A stretch of 64,000 nucleotides of DNA. Source: Escherichia coli (lineage in GTDB: Bacteria; Pseudomonadota; Gammaproteobacteria; Enterobacterales; Enterobacteriaceae). How positions within the stretch are numbered: position 1 is the stretch's first letter; each line of letters starts with the position of its first letter. A program made the position numbers and the translations under genes. Shown piece after piece: positions 3,391-39,027 of this stretch. The notes beneath the pieces were generated by a model. That model had not been told where the DNA came from, did no database searches, and was given only the letters and a program-made list of their open reading frames with translations. The stretch lies in NCBI RefSeq assembly GCF_046105845.1, contig NZ_CP151004.1. The stretch is one strand, 5' to 3'.

Positions 3391-3448
3391 TTCGTAGACA
3401 AACATGTTCACGTTTTGGAATTTGGACGTGCAATTGTGACGTGTAGAC

Positions 3449-3473
3449 GGGTGTTTACATATTGTGAACACCC
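3449..3473. promoter_or_regulatory. Inverted repeat GGGTGTT-N11-AACACCC upstream of the toxin gene; candidate antitoxin operator
   Basis: Perfect 7-bp inverted arms read directly in the sequence; a second related pair (tgttcac near 3406 / gtgaaca near 3464) lies nearby; about 85 bp upstream of the ATG at 3557. Confidence 0.35.
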
Positions 3474-3556
3474 GTGTGATCAACTACTATAGAAAAATAA
3501 ATCCGAAGGAATGGTAGTCCAGGTTTAGTCATTCAGGCGCTAATAAGGAAGTTAAA

Positions 3557-3868
3557 ATGCACATCATTTCTAAAGCGCCATTTGAAGAGTGTGCGCGCAA
3601 ATATCCTAACGACGCTCTGGCTCTACACTCATTGTATCGGGTTATTAAGGAAACGGATTTTTCTACACCAGAAGAAATGCGAACGGCGTTTCCCAACCTC
3701 GACAATTTTAGATATCGCAACAAATGGTACGTTCTGGATGTCGGCGGGAACAATCTTAGGGTTATTGCCTACATAAACTTTGTTAATAAGCGGTTCTTTG
3801 TGAAGCACATAACGAATCACGCAGAGTATGACAAACTGACACGTTACTACAGAGAGAACAAAGAATGA
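3557..3868 (+). CDS. HigB-family (RelE/ParE superfamily) mRNA-interferase toxin
   Basis: 103 aa; recognisable similarity to E. coli HigB (FPNLDNFRY...YVLDVGGNNLRVIA); SD aaggaag upstream; toxin-first order typical of higBA. Confidence 0.75.
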   Translation: MHIISKAPFEECARKYPNDALALHSLYRVIKETDFSTPEEMRTAFPNLDNFRYRNKWYVLDVGGNNLRVIAYINFVNKRFFVKHITNHAEYDKLTRYYRENKE

Positions 3869-4284
3869 CTGCTAATGCTGCACGCGCTGTTAAAGCAACA
3901 AGAGAACTGGTCAATGCAGTCCCCTTTCTGGGAGGTAGTGACTCAGAAGATGATTATCGTGAAGCACTGGAACTGGTCGAATATTTGATTGAAGAAGATG
4001 ACACCAATCCACTTATCGACTTTCTGGCGAGCCGCATTGCAGAATATGAAAACAACAACGAAAAGTTTGCCGAGTTCGACAAAGCCGTTGCAGCAATGCC
4101 GGTTGGCGTGGCGTTACTTCGTACGCTGATTGATCAACATAATCTGACCTATGCGGATTTGAAGAACGAAATCGGCTCTAAATCCCTGGTCAGTCAGATT
4201 TTGTCTGGACAACGATCCCTGACGATATCCCATATTAAGGCACTTTCAGCCCGATTTGGCGTTAAGCCGGAATGGTTTCTTTGA
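3865..4284 (+). CDS. HigA-family HTH (XRE-type) antitoxin
   Basis: 139 aa; start overlaps toxin stop (ATGA); C-terminal HTH-like segment (GSKSLVSQILSGQRSLTISHIKALSARFG) resembling HigA. Confidence 0.75.
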   Translation: MTANAARAVKATRELVNAVPFLGGSDSEDDYREALELVEYLIEEDDTNPLIDFLASRIAEYENNNEKFAEFDKAVAAMPVGVALLRTLIDQHNLTYADLKNEIGSKSLVSQILSGQRSLTISHIKALSARFGVKPEWFL

Positions 4285-4310
4285 TTTTGACTGATGCCAA
4301 ACGCCAGATT

Positions 4311-4335
4311 GCCCGATGCGCAACGCTTATCGGGC
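4311..4335. repeat. REP-like palindromic element
   Basis: gcccgatgcgcaacgcttatcgggc resembles the REP consensus; lies between the antitoxin gene and the ascB 3' end. Confidence 0.4.
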
Positions 4336-4362
4336 TTTCCTGGTTAGTGCGACAGTAGTTAC

Positions 4363-9351: not shown

Positions 9352-11592
9352 ATGGCAAAAAACATATCTTGCGGTGTCCAACTGCGTATTCGTGGCAAAG
9401 TGCAGGGCGTCGGTTTTCGTCCGTTTGTCTGGCAGCTGGCACAGCAATTAAATCTTCACGGCGATGTCTGTAATGACGGCGATGGCGTAGAAGTCCGGCT
9501 GCTGGAAGACCCGGAAACGTTTCTTGTGCAGTTGCATCAGCACTGCCCGCCGCTGGCGCGTATTGATAGCGTCGAGCGTGAGCCGTTTATCTGGTCACAA
9601 CTGCCCACTGAGTTCACTATCCGCCAGAGCACAGGCGGCACCATGAATACGCAAATTGTCCCGGATGCCGCCACTTGCCCTGCTTGCCTTGCCGAAATGA
9701 ATACCCCGGGCGAGCGGCGTTATCGTTATCCGTTTATCAACTGTACCCACTGCGGCCCACGTTTCACCATTATTCGCGCGATGCCTTACGACCGCCCGTT
9801 TACCGTGATGGCGGCGTTTCCGCTGTGTCCGGCCTGTGACAAAGAATATCGCGACCCGCTCGATCGTCGCTTCCACGCCCAGCCGGTGGCCTGCCCGGAG
9901 TGTGGCCCACATCTTGAATGGGTAAGTCATGGTGAACATGCAGAACAAGAGGCGGCATTACAGGCAGCTATCGCACAGTTAAAAATGGGCAACATTGTCG
10001 CCATCAAAGGGATTGGCGGATTTCATCTCGCCTGCGATGCGCGTAACAGTAACGCGGTGGCGACACTGCGGGCGCGCAAACATCGCCCGGCGAAACCGCT
10101 GGCGGTTATGTTGCCAGTGGCAGAAGGTTTACCAGACGCTGCCCGTCAGTTGCTTACCACACCCGCCGCGCCGATTGTGCTGGTGGATAAAAAATACGTT
10201 CCTGAGCTTTGTGATGATATCGCCCCTGGCCTTAACGAAGTTGGGGTGATGTTGCCTGCGAATCCGCTTCAGCATTTGCTGTTACAGGAACTGCAATGTC
10301 CGCTGGTGATGACCTCCGGCAACCTGAGCGGTAAACCACCGGCTATCAGCAACGAACAGGCGCTGGCGGATTTGCAGGGCATTGCCGACGGATTCTTGAT
10401 ACATAACCGCGACATCGTGCAGCGGATGGATGATTCGGTGGTGCGTGAAAGCGGCGAAATGCTGCGCCGTTCGCGGGGGTATGTGCCGGATGCGCTGGCT
10501 TTGCCTCCGGGCTTTAAAAATGTTCCGCCTGTGCTGTGTCTCGGCGCGGATCTGAAAAATACCTTCTGCCTGGTGCGCGGTGAACAAGCAGTGTTGAGTC
10601 AGCATCTGGGCGATTTAAGTGACGATGGCATCCAGATGCAGTGGCGCGAAGCGTTACGCCTGATGCAAAACATCTACGATTTTACCCCGCAATACGTTGT
10701 GCATGACGCACATCCGGGCTATGTCTCCAGCCAGTGGGCGCGCGAAATGAATCTGCCGACGCAAACGGTGCTGCATCATCATGCTCATGCGGCGGCGTGT
10801 CTGGCAGAACATCACTGGCCGCTGGATGGCGGTGATGTCATTGCGTTGACGCTCGACGGTATCGGTATGGGGGAGAACGGCGCTTTATGGGGCGGCGAGT
10901 GCCTGCGGGTGAACTATCGCGAATGCCAGCACCTGGGCGGCTTGCCAGCGGTGGCGCTTCCGGGGGGCGATTTGGCTGCAAAGCAGCCGTGGCGTAACCT
11001 GCTGGCGCAGTGCCTGCGCTTTGTGCCGGAGTGGCAGAATTACCCTGAAACGACAAGTGTGCAACAGCAAAACTGGAGCGTGCTGGCGCGGGCCATTGAG
11101 CGTGGAATTAACGCGCCGCTGGCGTCATCGTGTGGGCGTTTGTTCGATGCTGTGGCGGCGGCGCTGGGCTGTGCGCCAGCCACGTTAAGTTATGAAGGTG
11201 AAGCAGCTTGTGCTCTGGAGGCGCTCGCAGCTTCGTGCGACGGAGTGACGCATCCGGTGACGATGCCGCTGGTGGACAATCAACTGGATCTCGCCACTTT
11301 CTGGCAGCAGTGGCTGAACTGGCAGGCACCGGTTAATCAACGCGCGTGGGCGTTTCATGATGCGCTGGCGCAGGGTTTTGCCGCGTTGATGCGTGAGCAG
11401 GCCACGATGCGCGGTATCACTACGCTGGTATTTAGCGGTGGGGTTATTCATAACCGATTGCTGCGTACACGCCTGGCGCATTATCTCGCTGATTTCACAT
11501 TGCTCTTTCCGCAGAGTTTACCGGCGGGTGATGGCGGCTTGTCTCTGGGGCAGGGGGTTATTGCTGCGGCGCGCATCCTGCATACTGCATAG
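9352..11592 (+). CDS. hypF: Carbamoyltransferase HypF (hydrogenase maturation)
   Basis: Acylphosphatase-like N-terminus, two CxxC...C zinc-finger pairs, YrdC and Kae1-like regions; start at [11 protein letters not shown]. Confidence 0.9.
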
Positions 11593-11669
11593 TGGCGGAT
11601 GTGGCGTAACTAAGCGTAAATAGAGCGCGGACAGTCCCCTCGCCCTTTGGGCGAGGGAGAAAAACATGC

Positions 11670-24705: not shown

Positions 24706-27336
24706 ATGAGCAAGAGCACCGCTGAGATCCGTCAGGCGTTTCTCGACTTTTTCCATAGTAAGGGACATCAGGTAGTTGCCAGCAGCTCCCTGGTACCCCA
24801 TAACGACCCAACTTTGTTGTTTACCAACGCCGGGATGAACCAGTTCAAGGATGTGTTCCTTGGGCTCGACAAGCGTAATTATTCCCGCGCTACCACTTCC
24901 CAACGCTGCGTGCGTGCGGGTGGTAAACACAACGACCTGGAAAACGTCGGTTACACCGCGCGTCACCATACCTTCTTCGAAATGCTGGGCAACTTCAGCT
25001 TCGGCGACTATTTCAAACACGATGCCATTCAGTTTGCATGGGAACTGCTGACCAGTGAAAAATGGTTTGCCCTGCCGAAAGAGCGTCTGTGGGTTACCGT
25101 CTATGAAAGCGACGACGAAGCCTACGAAATCTGGGAAAAAGAAGTAGGGATCCCGCGCGAACGTATTATTCGCATCGGCGATAACAAAGGTGCGCCATAC
25201 GCATCTGACAACTTCTGGCAGATGGGTGACACTGGTCCGTGCGGCCCGTGCACCGAAATCTTCTACGATCACGGCGACCACATTTGGGGTGGCCCTCCGG
25301 GAAGCCCGGAAGAAGACGGCGATCGCTACATTGAGATCTGGAACATCGTCTTCATGCAGTTCAACCGCCAGGCAGATGGCACGATGGAACCGCTGCCGAA
25401 GCCGTCTGTAGATACCGGTATGGGTCTGGAGCGTATTGCTGCGGTGCTGCAACACGTTAACTCTAACTATGACATCGACCTGTTCCGCACGCTGATCCAG
25501 GCGGTAGCGAAAGTCACTGGCGCGACCGATCTGAGCAATAAATCGCTGCGCGTAATCGCTGACCACATTCGTTCTTGTGCGTTCCTGATCGCGGATGGCG
25601 TAATGCCGTCCAACGAAAACCGTGGTTATGTACTGCGTCGTATCATTCGTCGCGCAGTGCGTCACGGTAATATGCTCGGCGCGAAAGAAACCTTCTTCTA
25701 CAAACTGGTTGGTCCGCTGATCGACGTTATGGGCTCTGCGGGCGAAGACCTGAAACGCCAGCAGGCGCAGGTTGAGCAGGTGCTGAAGACTGAAGAAGAG
25801 CAGTTTGCCCGTACTCTGGAGCGCGGTCTGGCGCTGCTGGACGAAGAGCTGGCAAAACTTTCTGGTGATACGCTGGATGGTGAAACGGCTTTCCGTCTGT
25901 ACGACACCTATGGCTTCCCGGTTGACCTGACGGCTGATGTTTGTCGTGAGCGCAACATCAAAGTTGACGAAGCTGGATTTGAAGCAGCAATGGAAGAGCA
26001 GCGTCGTCGTGCGCGCGAAGCCAGCGGCTTTGGTGCCGATTACAACGCAATGATCCGTGTTGACAGTGCATCTGAATTTAAAGGCTATGACCATCTGGAA
26101 CTGAACGGCAAAGTGACCGCGCTGTTTGTTGATGGTAAAGCGGTTGATGCCATCAATGCAGGCCAGGAAGCTGTGGTCGTGCTGGATCAAACGCCATTCT
26201 ATGCTGAATCCGGCGGTCAGGTTGGTGATAAAGGCGAACTGAAAGGCGCTAACTTCTCCTTTGCGGTGGAAGATACGCAGAAATACGGCCAGGCGATTGG
26301 TCACATCGGTAAACTTGCTGCGGGTTCTCTGAAAGTGGGCGACGCGGTGCAGGCTGATGTTGATGAAGCTCGTCGCGCCCGTATTCGTCTGAATCACTCC
26401 GCAACGCACCTGATGCACGCGGCGCTGCGCCAGGTTCTGGGTACTCATGTATCGCAGAAAGGTTCACTGGTTAACGACAAAGTGCTGCGCTTCGACTTCT
26501 CACACAACGAAGCGATGAAACCAGAAGAGATTCGTGCGGTCGAAGACCTGGTGAACGCACAGATTCGCCGTAACTTGCCGATTGAAACCAACATCATGGA
26601 TCTCGAAGCGGCGAAAGCGAAAGGTGCGATGGCGCTGTTCGGCGAGAAGTATGATGAGCGCGTACGCGTGCTGAGCATGGGCGATTTCTCCACCGAGCTG
26701 TGTGGCGGTACTCACGCCAGCCGCACTGGTGATATTGGTCTGTTCCGCATCATCTCTGAATCGGGTACTGCTGCAGGCGTTCGTCGTATCGAAGCGGTAA
26801 CCGGAGAAGGCGCTATCGCCACCGTTCATGCAGACAGCGATCGCTTAAACGAAGTCGCGCATCTGCTGAAAGGCGATAGCAATAATCTGGCTGATAAAGT
26901 GCGCTCAGTACTGGAACGTACGCGTCAGCTGGAAAAAGAGTTACAACAGCTTAAAGAACAAGCTGCCGCACAGGAGAGCGCAAATCTTTCCAGTAAGGCA
27001 ATTGATGTTAATGGTGTTAAGCTGTTGGTTAGCGAGCTTAGCGGTGTTGAGCCGAAAATGTTGCGTACCATGGTTGACGATTTAAAAAATCAGCTGGGGT
27101 CGACAATTATCGTGCTGGCAACGGTAGTCGAAGGTAAGGTTTCTCTGATTGCAGGCGTATCTAAGGACGTCACAGATCGTGTGAAAGCAGGGGAACTGAT
27201 TGGTATGGTCGCTCAGCAGGTGGGCGGCAAGGGTGGTGGACGTCCTGACATGGCGCAAGCCGGTGGTACGGATGCTGCGGCCTTACCTGCAGCGTTAGCC
27301 AGTGTGAAAGGCTGGGTCAGCGCGAAATTGCAATAA
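24706..27336 (+). CDS. alaS: Alanine--tRNA ligase
   Basis: 876 aa; class II aaRS motifs; C-terminal [15 protein letters not shown]. Confidence 0.97.
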
Positions 27337-27570
27337 TATAAGCGTCAGGCAATGCCGTGGACTCGCTTCACGGCATTCGCATTAACGCTATCGACAACGA
27401 TAAAGTCAGGTTGAAGTTGTGTATATCGGCTAAACTTAGGTTTAACAGAATGTAATGCCATGACTGCTTACATGTAATGTGTTTGTCATTGCTTACTTTT
27501 TGGCGTTATATGATGGATAATGCCGGGATACAGAGAGACCCGACTCTTTTAATCTTTCAAGGAGCAAAGA

Positions 27571-27756
27571 ATGCTGATTCTGACTCGTCGAGTTGGTGAG
27601 ACCCTCATGATTGGGGATGAGGTCACCGTGACAGTTTTAGGGGTAAAGGGCAACCAGGTACGTATTGGCGTAAATGCCCCGAAGGAAGTTTCTGTTCACC
27701 GTGAAGAGATCTACCAGCGTATCCAGGCTGAAAAATCCCAGCAGTCCAGTTACTAA
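27571..27756 (+). CDS. csrA: Carbon storage regulator (RNA-binding)
   Basis: 61 aa [48 protein letters not shown]. Confidence 0.97.
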
Positions 27757-27981
27757 TCTTTCCGCGTCTCATCTTTATCGGTGAGACGCACCCTCAAAAT
27801 TTCTTCTTCACTCCATTGTCTTTTCGCTTTACTCCCGTTCATTCAACTTAAGTCTCCATTTTTTTGCATTACTGCTATCTGACAGACCTCCGTTTTTCTG
27901 TTGATAAAACACTCTTTTTGACGTTTTTACAGACTAATTGAGCGTGAAGTGTGCAAACGATAAAAGTGTGGGAAAAATTGT

Positions 27982-28009
27982 TTGACTTATAAGTCTCAGA
28001 AAGTAATAT
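27982..28009 (+). promoter_or_regulatory. Candidate sigma-70 promoter of the serV-arg tRNA operon
   Basis: TTGACT (27982..27987), 16-nt spacer, TAATAT (28004..28009), then a GC-rich discriminator gcgccacgc. Confidence 0.5.
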
Positions 28010-28071
28010 GTGCGCCACGCAGCGACGATGAGCGATAAACAAGTTCTTCGAAGCACTCGTAAGAGGCGTGT

Positions 28072-28164
28072 GGTGAGGTGGCCGAGAGGCTGAAGGCGCT
28101 CCCCTGCTAAGGGAGTATGCGGTCAAAAGCTGCATCCGGGGTTCGAATCCCCGCCTCACCGCCA
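28072..28164 (+). tRNA. serV: tRNA-Ser (anticodon GCU)
   Basis: 93-nt cloverleaf with long variable arm, anticodon loop cuGCUaa, encoded CCA. Confidence 0.9.
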
Positions 28165-28167
28165 TTT

Positions 28168-28244
28168 GCATCCGTAGCTCAGCTGGATAGAGTACTCGGC
28201 TACGAACCGAGCGGTCGGAGGTTCGAATCCTCCCGGATGCACCA
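28168..28244 (+). tRNA. argV: tRNA-Arg (anticodon ACG), copy 1
   Basis: 77 nt gcatccgtagctcag...gatgcacca; anticodon loop cuACGaa. Confidence 0.9.
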
Positions 28245-28378
28245 TATTCTACATATTTTCAGCGATGAAGGTATGGAAGAGGTGGCGGTAATAACCGCAG
28301 GCACTAGGGAGGATAACGTTGCTTTAGCAACGGCCCGAAGGGCGAGCCGCAAGGCGAGTAATCCTCCCGGATGCACCA
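28245..28378 (+). repeat. Inter-tRNA repeat unit ending in a 19-nt copy of the tRNA-Arg 3' end
   Basis: aatcctcccggatgcacca at 28360..28378 identical to the tRNA-Arg 3' end; the unit has a paralogue at 28800..28932. Confidence 0.6.
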
Positions 28379-28442
28379 TCTCTTACTTGATACGGCTTTA
28401 GTAGCGGTATCAAAAAATCTGCAGTAAAGTAAGTTTCCCGAT

Positions 28443-28519
28443 GCATCCGTAGCTCAGCTGGATAGAGTACTCGGCTACGAACCGAGCGGTCGGAGGTTCG
28501 AATCCTCCCGGATGCACCA
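28443..28519 (+). tRNA. argY: tRNA-Arg (ACG), copy 2
   Basis: Identical 77-nt tRNA-Arg sequence. Confidence 0.88.
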
Positions 28520-28582
28520 TCTCTTACTTGATATGGCTTTAGTAGCGATATCAATATCAGCAGTAAAATAAATTTTCCCGAT

Positions 28583-28659
28583 GCATCCGTAGCTCAGCTG
28601 GATAGAGTACTCGGCTACGAACCGAGCGGTCGGAGGTTCGAATCCTCCCGGATGCACCA
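28583..28659 (+). tRNA. argZ: tRNA-Arg (ACG), copy 3
   Basis: Identical 77-nt tRNA-Arg sequence. Confidence 0.88.
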
Positions 28660-28722
28660 TCTCTTACTTGATATGGCTTTAGTAGCGATATCAATATCAG
28701 CAGTAAAATAAGTTTTCCCGAT

Positions 28723-28799
28723 GCATCCGTAGCTCAGCTGGATAGAGTACTCGGCTACGAACCGAGCGGTCGGAGGTTCGAATCCTCCCGGATGCACCA
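28723..28799 (+). tRNA. argQ: tRNA-Arg (ACG), copy 4
   Basis: Identical 77-nt tRNA-Arg sequence. Confidence 0.88.
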
Positions 28800-28932
28800 T
28801 ATTCTCCGAAATCTTCAGCAATAAAGGTATCGAAGAGGTAGCGGAATTAACCGCAGGCACCAGGGAGGATAACGTTGCGCCAGCAACGGCCCGAAGGGCG
28901 AACGCCAGTGAGTCATCCTCCCGGATGCACCA
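28800..28932 (+). repeat. Second copy of the inter-tRNA repeat unit with a tRNA-Arg 3'-end fragment
   Basis: atcctcccggatgcacca at 28915..28932; the preceding ~115 nt are paralogous to 28245..28360. Confidence 0.6.
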
Positions 28933-29079
28933 TCTTCTCCAAAAAATTTCCTTCAAAAATATCTCATTTCTAAATAACTACTTTATCCATTTCCTGAATA
29001 TTCTTCTCCTTCGCCATCAGCGACAAAATCAAGCAATTACGCTAAAGTAGCGTCATATTTTTCGACTTGCGAGAAGACC

Positions 29080-29646
29080 ATGTACGAGCGTTATGCAGGT
29101 TTAATTTTTGATATGGATGGCACCATCCTGGATACGGAGCCTACGCACCGTAAAGCGTGGCGCGAAGTATTAGGGCACTACGGTCTTCAGTACGATGTTC
29201 AGGCAATGATTGCGCTTAATGGCTCGCCCACCTGGCGTATTGCTCAGGCGATTATTGAGCTGAATCAGGCCGATCTCGACCCGCATGCGTTAGCGCGTGA
29301 AAAAACAGAAGCAGTAAGAAGTATGCTGCTGGATAGCGTCGAGCCGCTTCCTCTTGTCGAAGTGGTGAAAAGTTGGCATGGTCGTCGCCCAATGGCTGTA
29401 GGAACGGGGAGTGAAAGCGCCATCGCTGAGGCATTGCTGGCGCACCTGGGGTTACGCCATTATTTTGACGCCGTCGTCGCTGCCGATCACGTCAAACATC
29501 ATAAACCTGCGCCAGACACATTTTTGTTGTGCGCGCAGCGTATGGGCGTGCAACCGACGCAGTGTGTGGTCTTTGAAGATGCCGATTTCGGTATTCAGGC
29601 GGCCCTTGCAGCAGGCATGGACGCCGTGGATGTTCGCTTGCTGTGA
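29080..29646 (+). CDS. yqaB: HAD-family sugar phosphatase (fructose-1-phosphatase)
   Basis: HAD motif I LIFDMDGTILDTE; 188 aa. Confidence 0.88.
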   Translation: MYERYAGLIFDMDGTILDTEPTHRKAWREVLGHYGLQYDVQAMIALNGSPTWRIAQAIIELNQADLDPHALAREKTEAVRSMLLDSVEPLPLVEVVKSWHGRRPMAVGTGSESAIAEALLAHLGLRHYFDAVVAADHVKHHKPAPDTFLLCAQRMGVQPTQCVVFEDADFGIQAALAAGMDAVDVRLL

Positions 29647-30071
29647 GTGAAGCGTTATCGCTTTTCTCGTTGTTTGCCAGTAGTTTTCTCAGCGCTACAC
29701 TATTACCCGGCAACTCCGAAGTCGTGCTGGTGGCAATGTTGCTTTCCGGGATCAGTCATCCCTGGGTTTTAGTTTTAACAGCAACAATGGGTAATAGCCT
29801 TGGAGGGTTAACTAACGTTATCCTTGGGCGTTTCTTTCCATTGCGTAAAACATCGCGCTGGCAAGAGAAAGCTACCGGCTGGCTGAAACGCTATGGTGCA
29901 GTCACGCTATTATTAAGCTGGATGCCCGTGGTTGGCGATTTACTGTGTCTGTTAGCGGGATGGATGCGCATCTCGTGGGGACCGGTAATCTTTTTTTTGT
30001 GCCTTGGTAAAGCGTTACGCTATGTTGCAGTTGCAGCAGCTACCGTTCAGGGCATGATGTGGTGGCACTAA
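29643..30071 (+). CDS. yqaA: DedA/SNARE-associated family inner membrane protein
   Basis: 142 aa hydrophobic protein; ATGA overlap with yqaB. Confidence 0.85.
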   Translation: MSEALSLFSLFASSFLSATLLPGNSEVVLVAMLLSGISHPWVLVLTATMGNSLGGLTNVILGRFFPLRKTSRWQEKATGWLKRYGAVTLLLSWMPVVGDLLCLLAGWMRISWGPVIFFLCLGKALRYVAVAAATVQGMMWWH

Positions 30072-30116
30072 TTGTAGGCCTGCACATATGGTCACCATTA
30101 CAGTTATGCTAATTAA

Positions 30117-31700
<1,584 letters not shown>

Positions 31701-31708
31701 CAGAAAAG

Positions 31709-31781
31709 AAAAAGGCCACTCGTGAGTGGCCAAAATTTCATCTCTGAATTCAGGGATGATGATAACAAATGCGCGTCTTTC
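31709..31781 (-). ncRNA. micA: MicA (SraD) small regulatory RNA
   Basis: Minus strand reads gaaagacgcgcatttgttatcatcatccctgaattcagagatgaaattttggccactcacgagtggccttttt, i.e. the MicA sequence with its terminator hairpin. Confidence 0.9.
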
Positions 31782-31849
31782 ATATACTCAGACTCGCCTG
31801 GGAAGAAAGAGTTCAGAAAATTTTTAAAAAAATTACCGGAGGTGGCTAA

Positions 31850-32365
31850 ATGCCGTTGTTAGATAGCTTCACAGTCGATCATACCCGGATGGAAGCGCCT
31901 GCAGTTCGGGTGGCGAAAACAATGAACACCCCGCATGGCGACGCAATCACCGTGTTCGATCTGCGCTTCTGCGTGCCGAACAAAGAAGTGATGCCAGAAA
32001 GAGGGATCCATACCCTGGAGCACCTGTTTGCTGGTTTTATGCGTAACCATCTTAACGGTAATGGCGTAGAGATTATCGATATCTCGCCAATGGGCTGCCG
32101 CACCGGTTTTTATATGAGTTTGATTGGTACGCCAGATGAGCAGCGTGTCGCTGATGCCTGGAAAGCGGCAATGGAAGACGTGCTGAAAGTGCAGGATCAG
32201 AATCAGATCCCGGAACTGAACGTCTACCAGTGTGGCACTTACCAGATGCACTCGTTGCAGGAAGCACAGGATATTGCGCGTAGCATTCTGGAACGTGACG
32301 TGCGCATCAACAGCAACGAAGAACTGGCGCTGCCGAAAGAGAAGTTGCAGGAACTGCACATTTAG
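31850..32365 (+). CDS. luxS: S-ribosylhomocysteine lyase (AI-2 synthase)
   Basis: 171 aa; [10 protein letters not shown] metal-binding motif. Confidence 0.96.
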
Positions 32366-32381
32366 TCAGTTTAAGCAGAAG

Positions 32382-32414
32382 AGGCCGGGCTGGTGAAATC
32401 ACCGCCCGGCTTTT
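32382..32414 (+). terminator. Intrinsic terminator shared by convergent luxS and the HD-kinase gene
   Basis: gccgggc-tggtgaaatcaccg-cccggc hairpin followed by tttt; the minus-strand stop is at 32416..32418. Confidence 0.75.
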
Positions 32415-32415
32415 A

Positions 32416-33528
32416 TTACCTGTCAGTCACCCAATATTCCACACTATGTGCTTCATCAGGTTGAGGAACTTCCAGCCTTGAGGCCATCCGCATCACGACC
32501 GCTTCAGGAACTGCATACTCGCGTCTGGCATTTTGCTGCTTCCATTGCTCCCATGGCACTTCCAGATAAACGATTTTTACTCGTGCGCCGTAAGCCGTAA
32601 ACAGACTGATGAGCTGGCTACGCAGCTGGCGGGTAATGTTCGTCGCATTCCAGATGAACGGCTTTTTCTGGCGTAAAAAAACGCGCGCCTCTTCTTTTGC
32701 CTGTTGCACAATACGCCCGGTGGCGGTTTTGTCGTCCGGGCTGGCATTGATTCGCCGCCGCATATCATCAAGGCTGATAACGTCCATTCCCAGGCACAGT
32801 TCACTGATATAGCGATCTTTGCCCATACCCGGTAAGCCACACAGCAAAATAACCTCAAAAGATTCAGCCTCCCAGGGAACAAAATCAGGAGAACTTTGCT
32901 CATGAGTCAGGTAGTGCCAGCGTGCGGAATCAGACACGAACGGGCGCGCTTTTCCCCAGCATTGTTGCTCATGGCAAAACAGCTCGAACAGATCGATGCG
33001 TTCCAGCATTGATTGCTGGTCCGGGCTTTGGCGACCAAGCAGATCGGCACGAGCAAGCAAAGCGAGCAAACGCGTGTCGATGCGCATTGCAGCTGTGAGC
33101 AGCAAACGCTCCGGTTCCGGACGTTCCAGTAACCATAGCGGTAACCCATGCAGACGCACCAGCGCAACAATTTGCTCGCGTAGCACGAACGGCGTTGGGA
33201 TATCGCGCCATAAAATTTGTCGGGCCGTCAGTTCGCCCCGACGAGCATGGCCAGGCGACTGAATACGTCCGTTTTCCTGCACGGTAGTGCTGCGCTTTTC
33301 AACATCATGCAATAACGCCGCCGCCCATAAAACTTCCTGCTGTTGAGCGGGGAGTTGCTGGAATTCTGGCAGAGTAACGAGGGCGTTAAGTACCATTTCG
33401 GTATGCACGCCGACGTCGCCTTCACCATGATGCTCCGGGTCTTGTGGCGTGTGATGCATCTCCTCAACCCAACTGAAACGCTGGCGTAGCGCCGACCAGC
33501 GTTTATCGTCGGTAAGCTGCCAAATCAT
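32416..33528 (-). CDS. HD-domain phosphoesterase fused to a P-loop polynucleotide-kinase-like domain (putative end-healing enzyme)
   Basis: 370 aa; N-terminal HD signature ([11 protein letters not shown] ... AALLHDVEK ... GHARRG ... RLHGL ... ARADLLGR); C-terminal Walker-A-like [12 protein letters not shown] with Walker-B-like DVISLDD; start overlaps the upstream ligase stop (ATGA). Confidence 0.65.
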
Positions 33529-34232
33529 GATTGTTCTCCATAGGTGAACTCATGGGCCATCCGCGCCCGTTGCCAGTGGCGTTTCCAGTGTACGGTAGTT
33601 TTGACATGATTTTTGCGTACATACTTGAAGACGTTATGCGAAAAGTCAGCGACGGAAAACGCATCACGATTCCGGCTGACAATGCCTTCCAGCGTACAGG
33701 GTTGCCCGGTTTGTGTATCCCAGGGATCGAACGCGCCGCGCGCATTGGTCAGCGCCAGAAAATCACGTTGCCAGCTTTTTTCATCATTCCCCGGCTGCGG
33801 GCCGGAGATTTCGGGAACGCAGGGGAAATCAAACAGAGCGGCGTAAAACTGCACCTCTTCCCAGCTCAGCCACATATCCTGGCAGCGAACGGCAAACAGA
33901 TAAAAATCCTGCTCCAGGGCGCGATATTCAATCGAATGGACGGCATAAAGATTTTCACCAAACAACTCCAGATCGCCGAGATCGTTTTTCAGCAGTTGCC
34001 AGCGTTGGCGAATTTTATAGGTCCATGCCGACTGCGTAGGCGCGGCATGGGAACGGGCAAACACGCCGTAGCGGTTAAGGCAGTTATTTTCACCGTCGAG
34101 TTTTTCTGTGTGCACCAATTGCGTGATGGCCTGTAAATCCTGCCAGTAATCGGTGTTAATACGGTCATCGCTGGTGGTGCCAGGGGAGAAAGGATAATGC
34201 CAGGTTCTCCCGTATTTTCGTTGGGTATTCAT
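33525..34232 (-). CDS. ATP-dependent RNA ligase, Rnl2-like nucleotidyltransferase
   Basis: 235 aa; motif [10 protein letters not shown] (KxDGxN), motif III-like [11 protein letters not shown], motif IV-like EGIVSR, motif V-like FKYVRKNH. Confidence 0.65.
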
Positions 34233-34456
34233 AATAATCCATTATTTTGTGTGTAATAAATGTACGCCCGCGAGGGTGCGAGTTATGGGGTTAAAAGAAA
34301 AATGTGAGTATCACCCGCGAAAGCGAGGGCGAAGGAAAAAGAGAATTAACAACCTGAGCGAATGCTCAGAACCGGTTAATGGTGAATGGAAGAGTTTGGG
34401 GCGGCGAAAAGATACACCGAATGAGTGGATAAAACAACCGTTTGCAAAATGAGCAA

Positions 34457-34480
34457 ATAAAAAGGGAGCCGCAGCTCCCT
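34457..34480 (-). terminator. Intrinsic terminator of emrB
   Basis: Minus strand: gggagctgcggctccc hairpin followed by tttttatttg. Confidence 0.7.
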
Positions 34481-34489
34481 TTGACAACC

Positions 34490-36028
34490 TTAGTGCGCAC
34501 CACCTCCGCCGCCACCTGCGCCAAATGGCGGTTTAGCAAACCACACCAGCCCCAGCAGGACGAGGAATATCCCAGCTGACATCCAGAAGATCTCATTGGC
34601 GGAAATAATCAGCCCCTGATTGGTGATCTGCTGGGCAATCCAGCCTGATGCCTGCTGTTGCGTCATCCCAAGCCCTTCCAGTTGACTATACATCGCCTGG
34701 GCATTCGGGTTGAACGGGTTTACCGACTCAGTCAACTGCGCATGGTGCATCGACTCGCGGTTGGTCCACATGGTAGTGGTTATCGACGTGCCGATAGACC
34801 CCGCCAGCGTTCGCGTAAAGTTAGAGAGGCTCGATGCTGCCGCCAGTCGTTCCGGTGGCAAACCAGACAGCGTAATGGTGGTCAGCGGCATAAAGAAGCA
34901 GGCCACCGCAAAACCCTGGATAAACTGCGGCCAGGCCGACGCGCCAAAATCCATACCTGGTTCAAAGGTATAGGCACGCCAGTAGAAGCAGACGGCATAC
35001 ATAATAAAGCTGAAGGTTACCAGCCGCCGCATATCCAGTTTATGCGCGAAGCGGCCGATAATCGGCGACAGGATCACCGGAATAATTCCTACCGGCGCAG
35101 AGGCCAGACCTGCCCACGTTGCCGTGTAACCGTAGACCTCCTGCAACAACTGCGGCAGCAGAACAATCGCGCCGAAGTAGAGCATATACGCGAGGCTGAT
35201 ACACAAGCAGCCGATGGTGAAGTTGCGCGACTTAAACAACGACAGATCGACTATCGGGTTATCGTCGGTCAGCTCCCAGACAATCAGGAAGCAGATAGCC
35301 ACCACTGCCACCACGGTAAGGATGATAATTTCCTGTGATGAGAACCAGTCCAGCTCTTTACCGCGGTCGAGCATAATCTGCAGGCTACCGATACCAATAA
35401 CCAGCAGTGCCAGCCCCACGGCATCAATCCGCCGCCGTTCGGTGCGGGTTTCACGTCCGCGCAGGGTTTGCAGTGTCATCAACACCACCGCCACGCCAAT
35501 CGGTACGTTGATGAAGAATATCCAGCCCCAGTGGTAATTGTCACTGATATACCCGCCGAGGATCGGGCCGCAAATTGGCGCGACAATCACCGTCATCGAC
35601 CACAACGCCAGCGCGATCGAGCGTTTGGCTGGCGGGTAGTTATTCAGCAATAGACTTTGCGAAAGCGGAATTAACGGCCCGGCGACAATCCCCTGAATCA
35701 CGCGGAAGAAGATCAGCATATTCAGGCTGCTGGAGACACCACACGCCCACGACGCAATAGCAAAGGCGATGGTTGACCAGAGGAACAGTTTCACTTCCCC
35801 GACGCGCTTTGCCAGCCAGCCGGTAAGCGGGATCGAGATGGCATTCGCCACCCCGAAAGAAGTGATTACCCACGTTCCCTGGCTGAGCGATGAGCCCAGA
35901 TTCCCGGCGATAGTGGGGATCGCCACGTTAGCAATGGTGGAGTCCAGCACCTGCATGAATGTCGCCAGTGACAGCGCAATCGTCATAATGACCAGTTGCG
36001 CGCCTTCCAGCGGTTTTTGCTGTTGCAT
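34490..36028 (-). CDS. emrB: Multidrug efflux MFS permease (14-TMS DHA2)
   Basis: Start at MQQQKPLEGAQL; large hydrophobic protein downstream of emrA. Confidence 0.93.
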   Translation of the reverse strand: MQQQKPLEGAQLVIMTIALSLATFMQVLDSTIANVAIPTIAGNLGSSLSQGTWVITSFGVANAISIPLTGWLAKRVGEVKLFLWSTIAFAIASWACGVSSSLNMLIFFRVIQGIVAGPLIPLSQSLLLNNYPPAKRSIALALWSMTVIVAPICGPILGGYISDNYHWGWIFFINVPIGVAVVLMTLQTLRGRETRTERRRIDAVGLALLVIGIGSLQIMLDRGKELDWFSSQEIIILTVVAVVAICFLIVWELTDDNPIVDLSLFKSRNFTIGCLCISLAYMLYFGAIVLLPQLLQEVYGYTATWAGLASAPVGIIPVILSPIIGRFAHKLDMRRLVTFSFIMYAVCFYWRAYTFEPGMDFGASAWPQFIQGFAVACFFMPLTTITLSGLPPERLAAASSLSNFTRTLAGSIGTSITTTMWTNRESMHHAQLTESVNPFNPNAQAMYSQLEGLGMTQQQASGWIAQQITNQGLIISANEIFWMSAGIFLVLLGLVWFAKPPFGAGGGGGGAH

Positions 36029-36044
36029 CACACGCACCTCTGGA

Positions 36045-37217
36045 TTAGCCAGCGTTAGCTTTTACGATATCGTCGATCAGTTTATTGACAGGTGCCAGGC
36101 TGATTTCACGCGCGGTGCTTACCGCTACCGGTGTGGAACGTACTTTATTTGCCAGTACCTGACCGTCACGGTTAGTGGTATTGACGCTCACCAGCGTGGA
36201 TAAACCGATACGCAGCGGGTATTGCTCCAGCTGTTTTTGGTCCAGTTCGATACGAACAGGCAGACGCTGAACGACTTTGATCCAGTTACCAGTCGCATTT
36301 TGCGCCGGAAGCAGCGAGAACGCGCTACCTGTGCCCATATCCAGACCAACCACTTTACCGGTGTATTTCACATCATCGCCGTAAATATCGGTGGTGATGG
36401 TGACCGGCTGACCGATGCGCATATTGGCAATCTGCGTCTCTTTAAAGTTGGCATCCACCCACATATTGGTGGCTGGAACGACCGCCATTAGCGGCGTCGT
36501 TGGGCTAATTTGCGCCCCAGGCTGTACCGCGCGGCGGGAGACATAACCGGTCATCGGACTGACAATACGGGTACGCTCCAGCGCCAGCCAGGCGTTACGT
36601 ACTTCGGTGGCAGCCTGTTGCACGGCAGGCTGATCTTCCAGTTTAGTCCCCAGAATCATCGCCTGATTGGCATTGTATTGTTGAATAGCGACGTCCAGTT
36701 GTGCCTGGGCACTGGTAACGGCGTCGCGGGCGTGTTGCAGCTCTTCGCGACCAATCAGGTTGGCATTGCCCAGCGGCACACGGCGGTTGTAGTCGCTTTG
36801 TGCTTTCGCGAGGGCGATTTTTTGCACCTCAATATTCGCCTGCAACTGTTTGCTGTTAATCATCAGCTGGTGGGTTTGGCGAACGCTGGAAGCCAGTGCA
36901 GTTTTGGCTTTTTCAAACGCCTGGCGAGCATCTGTCGGGTCGAGAGTGACCAGAACATCGCCTTCTTTTACAAAATCGGTGTTATCGGCCCAGACTTTCG
37001 TCACGCTGCCAGACACCTGAGACATAATTTGAATCTGATTCCCTGCCACGTATGCGTCATCGGTTTCTTCGAAATGACGCAGTACCAAAAACCAATAAAT
37101 CCCTATCGCTACGGCAATAATTATAAAGAGCAAGGTGAGAAGGAGGAGCAGACGCTTACGTTTGCCGCTCTTCTTTACCGGTTGCTGCGGGGTTTGAGTC
37201 TCCGCATTTGCGCTCAT
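36045..37217 (-). CDS. emrA: Multidrug efflux membrane fusion protein
   Basis: Start at MSANAETQTPQQ; single TM then coiled-coil/lipoyl-like domains. Confidence 0.93.
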   Translation of the reverse strand: MSANAETQTPQQPVKKSGKRKRLLLLLTLLFIIIAVAIGIYWFLVLRHFEETDDAYVAGNQIQIMSQVSGSVTKVWADNTDFVKEGDVLVTLDPTDARQAFEKAKTALASSVRQTHQLMINSKQLQANIEVQKIALAKAQSDYNRRVPLGNANLIGREELQHARDAVTSAQAQLDVAIQQYNANQAMILGTKLEDQPAVQQAATEVRNAWLALERTRIVSPMTGYVSRRAVQPGAQISPTTPLMAVVPATNMWVDANFKETQIANMRIGQPVTITTDIYGDDVKYTGKVVGLDMGTGSAFSLLPAQNATGNWIKVVQRLPVRIELDQKQLEQYPLRIGLSTLVSVNTTNRDGQVLANKVRSTPVAVSTAREISLAPVNKLIDDIVKANAG

Positions 37218-37272
37218 ATTGTTCTCCACGATCTTCTTAACTCATCGGCTGAGCCGACCTGCTTGCCAAAAA

Positions 37273-37296
37273 GGCCAGCATGTTGCGATGCTGGCC
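37273..37296 (-). promoter_or_regulatory. Perfect hairpin between mprA and emrA (possible attenuator/processing site)
   Basis: ggccagcat-gttgcg-atgctggcc flanked by an A-run and a T-run. Confidence 0.45.
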
Positions 37297-37343
37297 AGTC
37301 ATTTTTTCTTTTATAAATCTGGATTTTTGAGCGAGATGACGCG

Positions 37344-37874
37344 TTAGCTCATCGCTTCGAGAACCACACCGTCTTGTTCCATCTGGTCGAGACGGGAGAG
37401 CAATTTGCGGGTGATTTGCTCGAGCTGATCTTTTTCTGTTGTGCTGAGCGCGGACCAGAGTTGATGCAGGCAGTTATGCTGCGGTGGTAAAACCTCGCGC
37501 AAAAACTCGTGACCTTTTTCCGTTAATTGCAGATGCAGGCAGCGGCGATCGTTATCGCTTTCACGACGTTCAATCCAACCGCGTTTTTCCAGTTCATCGG
37601 CAATACGCGTCGCGTTGGTACGGGATGATCCAAGAGCACAACTCAATTCAGAAGGCTGAATACTGTGGTTTTCCTGAGACTCCAGCGTAATCAACGCCAT
37701 AAACAACGTCTCGTTAATCCCCTGAGCCTTCAGCATTTTATTGCGGTTCTCCAGCAGCTTGCTTTGCATGTGCATGCAAAGACGGGTCAGAAGGATCTCC
37801 TGATAAGGAAAATCTTCGTGGCGGCTGGCGCGAAATTTTAGCATTTGTTCAATGGGCGTAAACGAACTATCCAT
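37344..37874 (-). CDS. mprA: MarR-family repressor of emrAB
   Basis: 176 aa with MarR winged-HTH region. Confidence 0.93.
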
Positions 37875-37964
37875 TTGGGTATGACCTCATTAATTTCAGC
37901 CGATATAGTAACGACAGTGACAAATAAAGTAAATGTATTGTTTTAGAAAAATGATTCTTGTGGG

Positions 37965-38300
37965 TTATATAATCGCCATCACTTTCCAGGCGAGCCCGTA
38001 GGCCAGCGCACTAAGCAGTGTTGGGATGATAATGCTGCGTGTTTTATAGAAACTGGCACCCAGTACCGCGAAGCCGACCAGCGTGGGCACGAAACGGCGT
38101 GTATCGTGCATCACTTCTGGTGCGGTAGAGACAACCAGCAGAGCGCATATCGAGGCGATGCCAATGGTGTCGAGCAATATGCCTATCGCGCCACGTTTGG
38201 TTGGGCGGGTATTACCCACACGCAGGCGCAGCGGCAAATAGCGGAAGCAATAATTCGCCGCGCCAACCAGTAACCCAAGCAGCAGAACCTCATAGCTCAT
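37965..38300 (-). CDS. ygaH: Branched-chain amino acid (valine) exporter small subunit, AzlD-like
   Basis: 111 aa hydrophobic; overlaps ygaZ end. Confidence 0.85.
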
Positions 38301-39027
38301 CGGGCGCTCCTTGCCAGAATGCCTGGATTAACGCAGTGAGGCAGCCACAGACAATGCCTGCCAGAATGGCGACGGGAATAGAAAATAGCGTTACGCCTGC
38401 AAGGGCACCAACTAACGCTGCGGTAACGCAAAGAGATTGTTTGCGCTGGAAAGAGGCGAGCAGGAAACTCATAAAGAGTGCCGGAAGCATAAAACCTAAT
38501 GCTGCTTCAACGGCGGGATATCCTTGCAGCAAGCCGCTGCCGGAGAATGCCCCTATTACCGTACCAAATACCCACGATGACCATGAACTGAAGGCAATGC
38601 CGATCATCCAGTTCTCGCTCCAGCGGCGATTATTGCGTACCAGTTTTGCGGTTGCGGCGGCAAAAACCTCATCCGTCAGGCCAAATGCCCACAGGGCGGT
38701 TTTCGATTTTTGCAGACGCTGAATAATACGGCTACGCAGTGACGGGCCATACAAAACATGGCGAACATCCATTGCCATGACGGTCAGTGCAGCAACCCAC
38801 AAACTACTCCCGGCTGCCAGCATCGCGGTAATGACGAACTGGCTCGCGCCTGCATAAATGATGCAGGAGAAAAAAACGCTTTCGAGAGGAGAGAATCCCA
38901 GACGGGTCGCATTCAGACCGAACGCAAAGGCCACCGGAATATAACTAATAACAATCGGTAAACTGTCTTTGCATCCTTCCATGAAGGTCGCCGAACCAGG
39001 AGCAGGCTGTGGAGTAGGGCTTTCCAT
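38290..39027 (-). CDS. ygaZ: Branched-chain amino acid (valine) exporter large subunit, AzlC-like
   Basis: 245 aa polytopic membrane protein. Confidence 0.85.

Follow-up and report, generated by a model that had tools for sequence, protein, structure and literature searches.

The minus strand of a 64-kb stretch of Escherichia coli DNA (64,000 nucleotides, hereafter the window) carries at positions 31709-31781 a gene that is almost certainly the chromosomal micA of this strain, encoding the Hfq-dependent small RNA MicA of 72-73 nt. Two decades of study have covered the promoter, targets, structure and luxS overlap of MicA, formerly named SraD, which has been known since 2001. Judged from its sequence, the gene described here is this already known one, an ordinary MicA and indeed the K-12 allele itself, in which every defining feature that can be tested was found, from the gene, its promoter and its terminator to the structure of the RNA, its seed complementarity, its synteny and its conservation. 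The resemblance to MicA is far beyond chance and nothing in the sequence speaks against it. The features of the locus are collected in Table 1.

Table 1. Features of the micA locus in window coordinates
Feature	Position	Strand	Description and basis
gshA (glutamate-cysteine ligase)	30144..31700	+	Convergent with micA; stop codon 9-10 nt from the MicA 3' end; open reading frame list and RefSeq annotation of identical DNA
Long luxS leader (P1 transcript)	31518..31849	+	Start at G -332, in the 3' end of gshA; holds the full MicA complement, 31709-31781
Rho-independent terminator	31704..31731	-	7-bp GC-rich hairpin GGCCACU/AGUGGCC (31731-31714), then U-run (31713-31704)
micA gene (MicA small RNA, 72-73 nt)	31709..31781	-	+1 G at 31781; 3' end in the U-run (31710/31709); Rfam match and K-12 identity
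AU-rich linker AAAUUUU, MicA nt 44-50	31732..31738	-	Unpaired in the fold
Stem-loop 1, MicA nt 24-43	31739..31758	-	4 bp, C/A mismatch, 3 bp, variable loop; Rfam consensus and minimum-free-energy fold
5' seed, MicA nt 8-24	31758..31774	-	Single-stranded; complementary to ompA -21 to -6, across the GAGG Shine-Dalgarno sequence
Discriminator GTATAT, 6 nt	31782..31787	-	Between the -10 box and the +1 G at 31781
Sigma-E-type core promoter	31788..31814	-	-35 GAACTC (31814-31809), 16-nt spacer, -10 TCTGA (31792-31788)
AT-rich UP-like element TTTTTTTAAAAATTTTCT	31815..31836	-	Read directly; adjoins the Shine-Dalgarno sequence of luxS (plus strand)
luxS (S-ribosylhomocysteine lyase)	31850..32365	+	Divergent from micA; start codon 68 nt from the MicA +1; open reading frame list and annotation

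With all 4227 Rfam families searched at their gathering thresholds, the whole window gave seven matches, namely six tRNAs and one match to MicA (RF00078). The latter runs from 31781 to 31710 on the minus strand and scores 83.9 bits, where the gathering score is 41, with E = 1.4e-11; it covers positions 1-75 of the 75 of the covariance model and is full length rather than truncated. A permissive local scan of 31000-32600 recovered MicA with an E-value of 3.5e-13, and no further RNA family, for example a luxS leader element, was found besides it in this interval. In parallel, comparison with E. coli K-12 MG1655 around micA gave 171 identical columns out of 171 (100%) over 31690-31860, a segment that includes promoter, gene and terminator. 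The K-12 annotation lists micA (b4442, "small regulatory RNA MicA") as a 73-nt ncRNA at 2814802-2814874, located between luxS and gshA on the strand opposite to both, and this feature projects onto 31781-31709 of the window; the Rfam match ends one base short of it, within the terminator U-run. A preliminary description of this DNA had reported a MicA sequence at 31709-31781, on the minus strand between gshA and luxS. The sequence itself is borne out by the Rfam score and by the identity to the characterised K-12 gene, the span proved to be exact since the K-12 annotation maps to the same coordinates, and the placement agrees with both the open reading frame list and the annotation. The check with the Rfam MicA model that had been proposed at that time was run and gave a strong match, so that an objection based on the lack of an Rfam hit fails.

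Over the whole gshA-micA-luxS segment, 29 of 2222 positions distinguish the present strain from K-12, and all of them lie within the gshA and luxS coding sequences. The 149-bp spacer holding micA and its promoter shows 0 differences where about two would be expected, so this identity is not significant when taken alone. The gene is widespread in the species. Of 5426 complete E. coli genomes, 5423 were matched by a 300-bp query around micA; every match was chromosomal, with a median of one place per genome and a maximum of three, and 4686 of the matches were at least 99% identical. Among the inspected records that match 31601-31900, micA was annotated only in the curated K-12 record, and the PGAP-annotated RefSeq genomes listed only gshA and luxS under the match. 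The missing micA in PGAP records reflects annotation practice and not absence of the gene.

Across Enterobacterales, at least 120 comparison loci were found by an exact 22-nt seed pattern, a mode of retrieval that makes the invariance of nt 6-27 in the alignment a matter of construction. They come from Yersinia, Serratia, Rahnella, Pantoea, Erwinia, Tatumella, Edwardsiella, Hafnia, Citrobacter, Enterobacter and other genera, and contain at least 78 distinct MicA RNAs of 70-77 nt. Among the matches listed, MicA was divergent from luxS and convergent with gshA in all of the 112 loci with room on both sides. The remaining eight listed loci had room on one side only and showed the expected gene there; counted separately, a convergent gshA lay downstream in 115 of 115 loci with room and a divergent luxS upstream in 117 of 117. 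The gap between the MicA +1 and the luxS start codon varied from 67 to 179 nt in these listed matches, with a median of 72.

The promoter is just as characteristic. The pattern GAACTY-N15-17-TCTGA has a single match on both strands of the 64 kb, where 0.10 would be expected, and this match is the micA promoter. Wherever the upstream sequence was long enough (116 loci counted, among the matches listed), the promoter boxes were found at a fixed distance, with TCTGA, TCTTA or TCTCA as -10 box and GAAC(T/C) or GAAAC(T/C) as -35 box. The T/A-rich tract that precedes the -35 box is also kept in other micA loci among these matches. In K-12, the micA promoter was described as bearing a consensus sigma-E signature with a 16-bp spacer, a 6-bp discriminator and an invariant C in the -10 box, as well as a conserved AT-rich element upstream of the -35 box, and MicA was reported to be undetectable in an rpoE mutant (Udekwu and Wagner 2007, PMC1851643). 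The geometry in the window equals the published one, and sigma-E probably uses this promoter in the present strain. A sigma-70 match was also seen on the plus strand at 31759-31788; it is at chance level (0.7 expected) and lies off the published luxS 5' ends, and it was given no weight.

The architecture of MicA is common to the Rfam structure and to the computed fold, with an unstructured 5' region followed by a short stem-loop, an AU-rich linker and the terminator. Its minimum free energy is -20.5 kcal/mol, corresponding to a z-score of -2.7 against dinucleotide shuffles (ViennaRNA). In the 78 distinct sequences aligned among the matches listed, 95.4% of the cells were paired under the Rfam structure, versus 31-52% when the 3' partners were slid by 1-3 columns. 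The pairs of stem-loop 1 were kept in 71-78 of the 78 sequences, with one G-C to A-U change, and the linker was AU-rich in 78 of 78. In the same way, six of the seven terminator pairs were invariant, whereas the innermost one changed from A-U to U-A in 6 of the 78 sequences. Compensatory changes were thus restricted to two of the 15 pairs, this innermost terminator pair and, in one sequence, the G-C to A-U pair of stem-loop 1. Covariation is thin because the stems are almost invariant, and it was rejected as a proof of the structure, which rests mainly on conservation and invariance together with the register control. Two elements proposed by ViennaRNA were dropped, a U23-A44 pair that is unpaired in 44 of the 78 listed sequences and a weak 5' hairpin at nt 5-18 that is not in the Rfam consensus. 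Hfq binds the linker between the hairpins and the U-tail, according to the review in PMC4618604. It would be expected to bind in the present strain as well, where both the linker and the 3' U-run are present and where the RNA is identical to the K-12 RNA for which binding is described in the literature.

The terminator, which had been noticed at the outset as belonging to MicA itself, is indeed its own. Both the terminator scan and the fold show a 7-bp stem with five GC pairs (31731-31714). It is followed by TTTTTCTTTT, the minus strand reading UUUUUCUUUU after the hairpin. The last base of the U-run, 31704, lies four bases from the stop codon of gshA. In the plus-strand direction, the sequence after this hairpin is AAAATTTC, with no T-run. 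It is therefore a poor terminator for the rightward transcripts of gshA and of the luxS leader and a good one for MicA.

The 5' region of the RNA carries the signature of a regulator acting in trans. When nt 1-24 of MicA were compared with the ompA leader of K-12 (-133 to +30; ompA itself lies outside the window), the best duplex joined nt 8-24 with -21 to -6 at -21.7 kcal/mol (RNAduplex). Duplexes as good as this were obtained with 6 of 2000 shuffled seeds and with 3 of 2000 shuffled leaders (at most 0.3%). A duplex of full-length MicA with the ompA leader, of -44.5 kcal/mol, was discarded, as it contained huge interior loops, extended over 127 nt of the target and was equalled by 24 of 1000 shuffles. 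The duplex over nt 8-24 is the pairing that gel shifts and compensatory mutations have established and that was found to be Hfq-dependent, as summarised in PMC4618604. Further targets, either validated or proposed, are given in the same review and include lamB, ompX, tsx, ecnB, pal, phoPQ, fimB, htrG, yfeK and others.

Taken together, a mechanism established in K-12 and in Salmonella is likely to hold for the expression and use of MicA in the present strain; it relies on the literature for the dependence on sigma-E and on Hfq, for the repression of targets and for the processing by RNase III. Upon envelope stress or entry into stationary phase, activated sigma-E would transcribe micA from the GAACTC-N16-TCTGA promoter. 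The RNA would then adopt its fold, in which an unstructured 5' region precedes a small stem-loop, an AU-rich linker and the terminator hairpin, and Hfq would occupy the linker and the U-tail. Its 5' region would pair with the ribosome-binding sites of ompA and of the envelope-related mRNAs lamB, ompX, tsx, ecnB, phoPQ and others. Such pairing would block the initiation of translation and promote mRNA decay, leading to a reduced load of outer-membrane protein. In addition, since micA lies opposite the luxS leader, MicA would match the long luxS transcripts starting within gshA with perfect complementarity, and RNase III would cut the resulting duplexes to yield a shorter luxS mRNA.

The antisense relation to the region upstream of luxS had also been pointed out in the preliminary description and it is confirmed, as the luxS transcripts described in PMC2956633 overlap micA. 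A refinement is that the established role of MicA is in trans, by sigma-E-induced and Hfq-dependent repression of ompA and other envelope mRNAs, while the evidence for an effect on luxS in cis concerns RNA. The P1 start of luxS was mapped by 5'-RACE in K-12 to a G located 332 nt before the AUG, downstream of a sigma-S-like promoter (Udekwu 2010, PMC2956633). Position -332 corresponds to 31518 of the window, where the base is a G, and 31455-31540 is without difference from K-12. With a start at 31518, P1 transcripts contain the full MicA complement. Three luxS mRNA species were described, and the levels of P1 and P2 fell on overexpression of MicA (PMC2956633). The shortest of them, R3, overlaps MicA by about 14 nt; it accumulated with MicA and was absent from an rnc mutant, and the processing of the long luxS transcripts by RNase III was reported to be MicA-dependent (PMC2956633). 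The interaction of MicA with luxS in cis is regarded as real at the RNA level, and it may have a physiological consequence.

It could be asked whether the element acts mainly in cis, its conserved position opposite the luxS leader serving to control luxS through cleavage of duplexes by RNase III and/or through collision of the divergent and overlapping transcription units, with the trans targets being secondary. The full complementarity of MicA to the P1 transcripts from 31518 would fit such a role, as would the arrangement with luxS and gshA that is kept at a tight distance (median 72 nt) in 112 of 112 loci among the matches listed, and so would R3, whose dependence on both MicA and RNase III was observed (PMC2956633). 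Moreover, deletions upstream of luxS in Salmonella cause biofilm phenotypes through an imbalance of MicA, as reviewed in PMC4618604. Nevertheless, induction or overexpression of MicA brought no detectable change in LuxS protein in the experiments reported in PMC2956633, and the 2015 review still called the effect on luxS unclear (PMC4618604). The trans targets have been validated by compensatory mutations (PMC4618604), and the conserved synteny may be just inherited gene order. It is in the single-stranded 5' seed that MicA is most conserved and complementary to ompA, which is what a small RNA acting in trans with Hfq would show, keeping in mind that nt 6-27 were fixed by the retrieval. Seed conservation, the validation of targets in trans and the absence of a detected effect on LuxS protein therefore speak against a mainly cis-acting element, which is regarded as very unlikely compared with a MicA that acts principally in trans.

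A second alternative holds that there is no RNA gene here and that a bidirectional gshA terminator and a structured luxS 5' leader stand behind the Rfam match. The hairpin does lie 13 nt past the gshA stop codon, the plus strand folds into two hairpins with -24.5 kcal/mol, and the micA interval belongs to the luxS leader (PMC2956633). Yet a T-run is found after the hairpin on the minus strand only, the plus strand having AAAATTTC there, and the conserved sigma-E-type promoter is directed along the minus strand at a fixed distance to the +1 (116 loci counted, among the matches listed). The 5' region complementary to ompA is likewise that of the minus strand. Finally, a transcript of about 70 nt, its +1 and its strict dependence on rpoE have been published (PMC1851643, PMC4618604). 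For K-12, published northern blots and rpoE genetics have already refuted such a reading, and for the present locus its probability is practically negligible.

Next to no credence can be given to a small protein, although a 48-aa minus-strand frame (31637-31783) and a 46-aa plus-strand frame (31722-31862) both figure in the six-frame list, because the minus-strand ATG has its A and T before the mapped +1 G (31781), so that the MicA transcript lacks that start codon, because MicA ends at about nt 72 whereas this frame has its stop far beyond and extends antisense into the gshA coding sequence, and because the length differences of 1, 2, 4 and 5 nt among the RNAs of other species in the matches listed, due to indels in the loops and the linker, would break either frame.

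The surroundings of micA differ more from K-12 than its spacer does. The window is collinear with K-12 2,784,616-2,845,962 (reverse complement) in blocks of about 96.5-98.6% identity, in contrast to the identical micA spacer, and it contains three stretches without K-12 counterpart; neither these stretches nor a difference in a tRNA array bears on MicA. The best match of 27000-39000 among 5426 complete E. coli genomes reaches only 98.9% (strain 2012C-4221). Together with the identity of the K-12 blocks, this indicates an E. coli lineage that is not closely represented in complete RefSeq genomes.

The first of the three stretches is a 2.1-kb accessory insert at 32371-34488, located between luxS and emrB in place of the 63-bp spacer of K-12. 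It holds two minus-strand open reading frames, 33525-34232 and 32416-33528, which overlap by 4 nt. The first encodes a 235-aa protein of the RNA ligase family (Pfam PF09414, E = 3e-28), named 'RNA ligase family protein' by PGAP. The second encodes a 370-aa protein, an 'ATP-binding protein' for PGAP, with a C-terminal AAA_33 polynucleotide-kinase-like domain (PF13671, E = 7e-33) and no Pfam match in its N-terminal part of about 220 aa. Sequence searches of the PDB with the two proteins were uninformative, giving a weak match to a kinase domain and a hemocyanin match without a significant stretch. The ligase/kinase pair is present in 999 of the 5426 complete E. coli genomes, always single-copy and chromosomal, the best being 98.7% identical. 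It looks like an RNA end-healing and sealing (repair) pair, and it may resemble the HD-Pnk and ligase operons described from Shuman's laboratory.

The second stretch, of 965 bp (3393-4357), lies between hycI and ascB and is absent from K-12. It contains two plus-strand open reading frames, 3557-3868 (103 aa) and 3865-4284 (139 aa), listed in RefSeq/PGAP as a type II toxin-antitoxin HigB-family toxin and a helix-turn-helix protein that is presumably the antitoxin (HigA). This stretch was found at full length in 1091 complete E. coli genomes and in part in about 1900 more. The third is a 95-nt variant spacer between hypF and norW (11574-11668) for which megablast found no counterpart in K-12. 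Within it, a GC-rich inverted repeat (CCCTCGCCC...GGGCGAGGG) has the look of a REP-type or terminator element. Finally, the array made of one tRNA-Ser and four tRNA-Arg genes (serV-argVYZQ, 28072-28796) is polymorphic in the length of its spacers. The Arg copies are spaced by 275/140/140 nt here, versus 275/139/275 in K-12 and 275/274/275 in strain 720632, which suggests recombination between repeated tRNA-spacer units.

Functional analogues of MicA are RybB and MicL, of the same regulon, and VrrA of Vibrio cholerae. VrrA is a sigma-E-dependent small RNA that represses ompA by pairing at the ribosome-binding site. It is not known to share sequence homology with MicA, lies in a different genomic context and falls outside RF00078. 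The K-12 MicA (SraD, b4442) is the closest relative of the present one, with identical promoter, RNA and terminator and with the same neighbours, orientation, promoter geometry, seed and structure; the two strains are told apart around it by the differences in the gshA and luxS coding sequences and by the insert downstream of luxS. RybB and MicL are, like MicA, transcribed by sigma-E under envelope stress and Hfq-dependent, and they use a 5' seed to repress mRNAs of outer-membrane proteins or lipoproteins (PMC1804206, PMC4102768). They are unrelated to MicA in sequence, encoded at other loci and not antisense to luxS, MicL being cut from the cutC coding region. No Rfam match to either was found in the 64-kb window. 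MicA was presented as the first E. coli small RNA to act both in cis, on luxS, and in trans, on ompA and phoP (PMC2956633). Compared with dual cis/trans antisense RNAs, its cis effect was seen only in the isoforms of the luxS transcript, no effect on LuxS protein having been detected in that study (PMC2956633).

The finding shows that a small RNA can be recognised from raw sequence at its exact coordinates. In the automatic RefSeq annotation of most E. coli genomes, only gshA and luxS appear at this place, and micA is silently absent from many of them. Moreover, a deletion or tag placed in luxS or at the 3' end of gshA in the present strain would hit micA, its promoter or its terminator, and the same confounder has been documented for luxS mutants of Salmonella (PMC4618604). 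Finally, the fixed placement of micA opposite the luxS leader, kept at a narrow spacing in 112 of 112 loci among the matches listed, might be under selection, with sigma-E-driven transcription of micA and cleavage of the MicA:luxS duplex by RNase III coupling envelope stress to LuxS/AI-2 output or to the activated methyl cycle to a physiologically meaningful extent. This is rather unlikely; if it were true, the coupling to LuxS/AI-2 would have escaped detection, since it was tested only by overexpression of MicA from a plasmid. The idea of such a selection and coupling was already raised (Udekwu 2010; Van Puyvelde et al. 2015) and, if true, it would settle an open detail of the biology of MicA rather than reveal a new kind of system.
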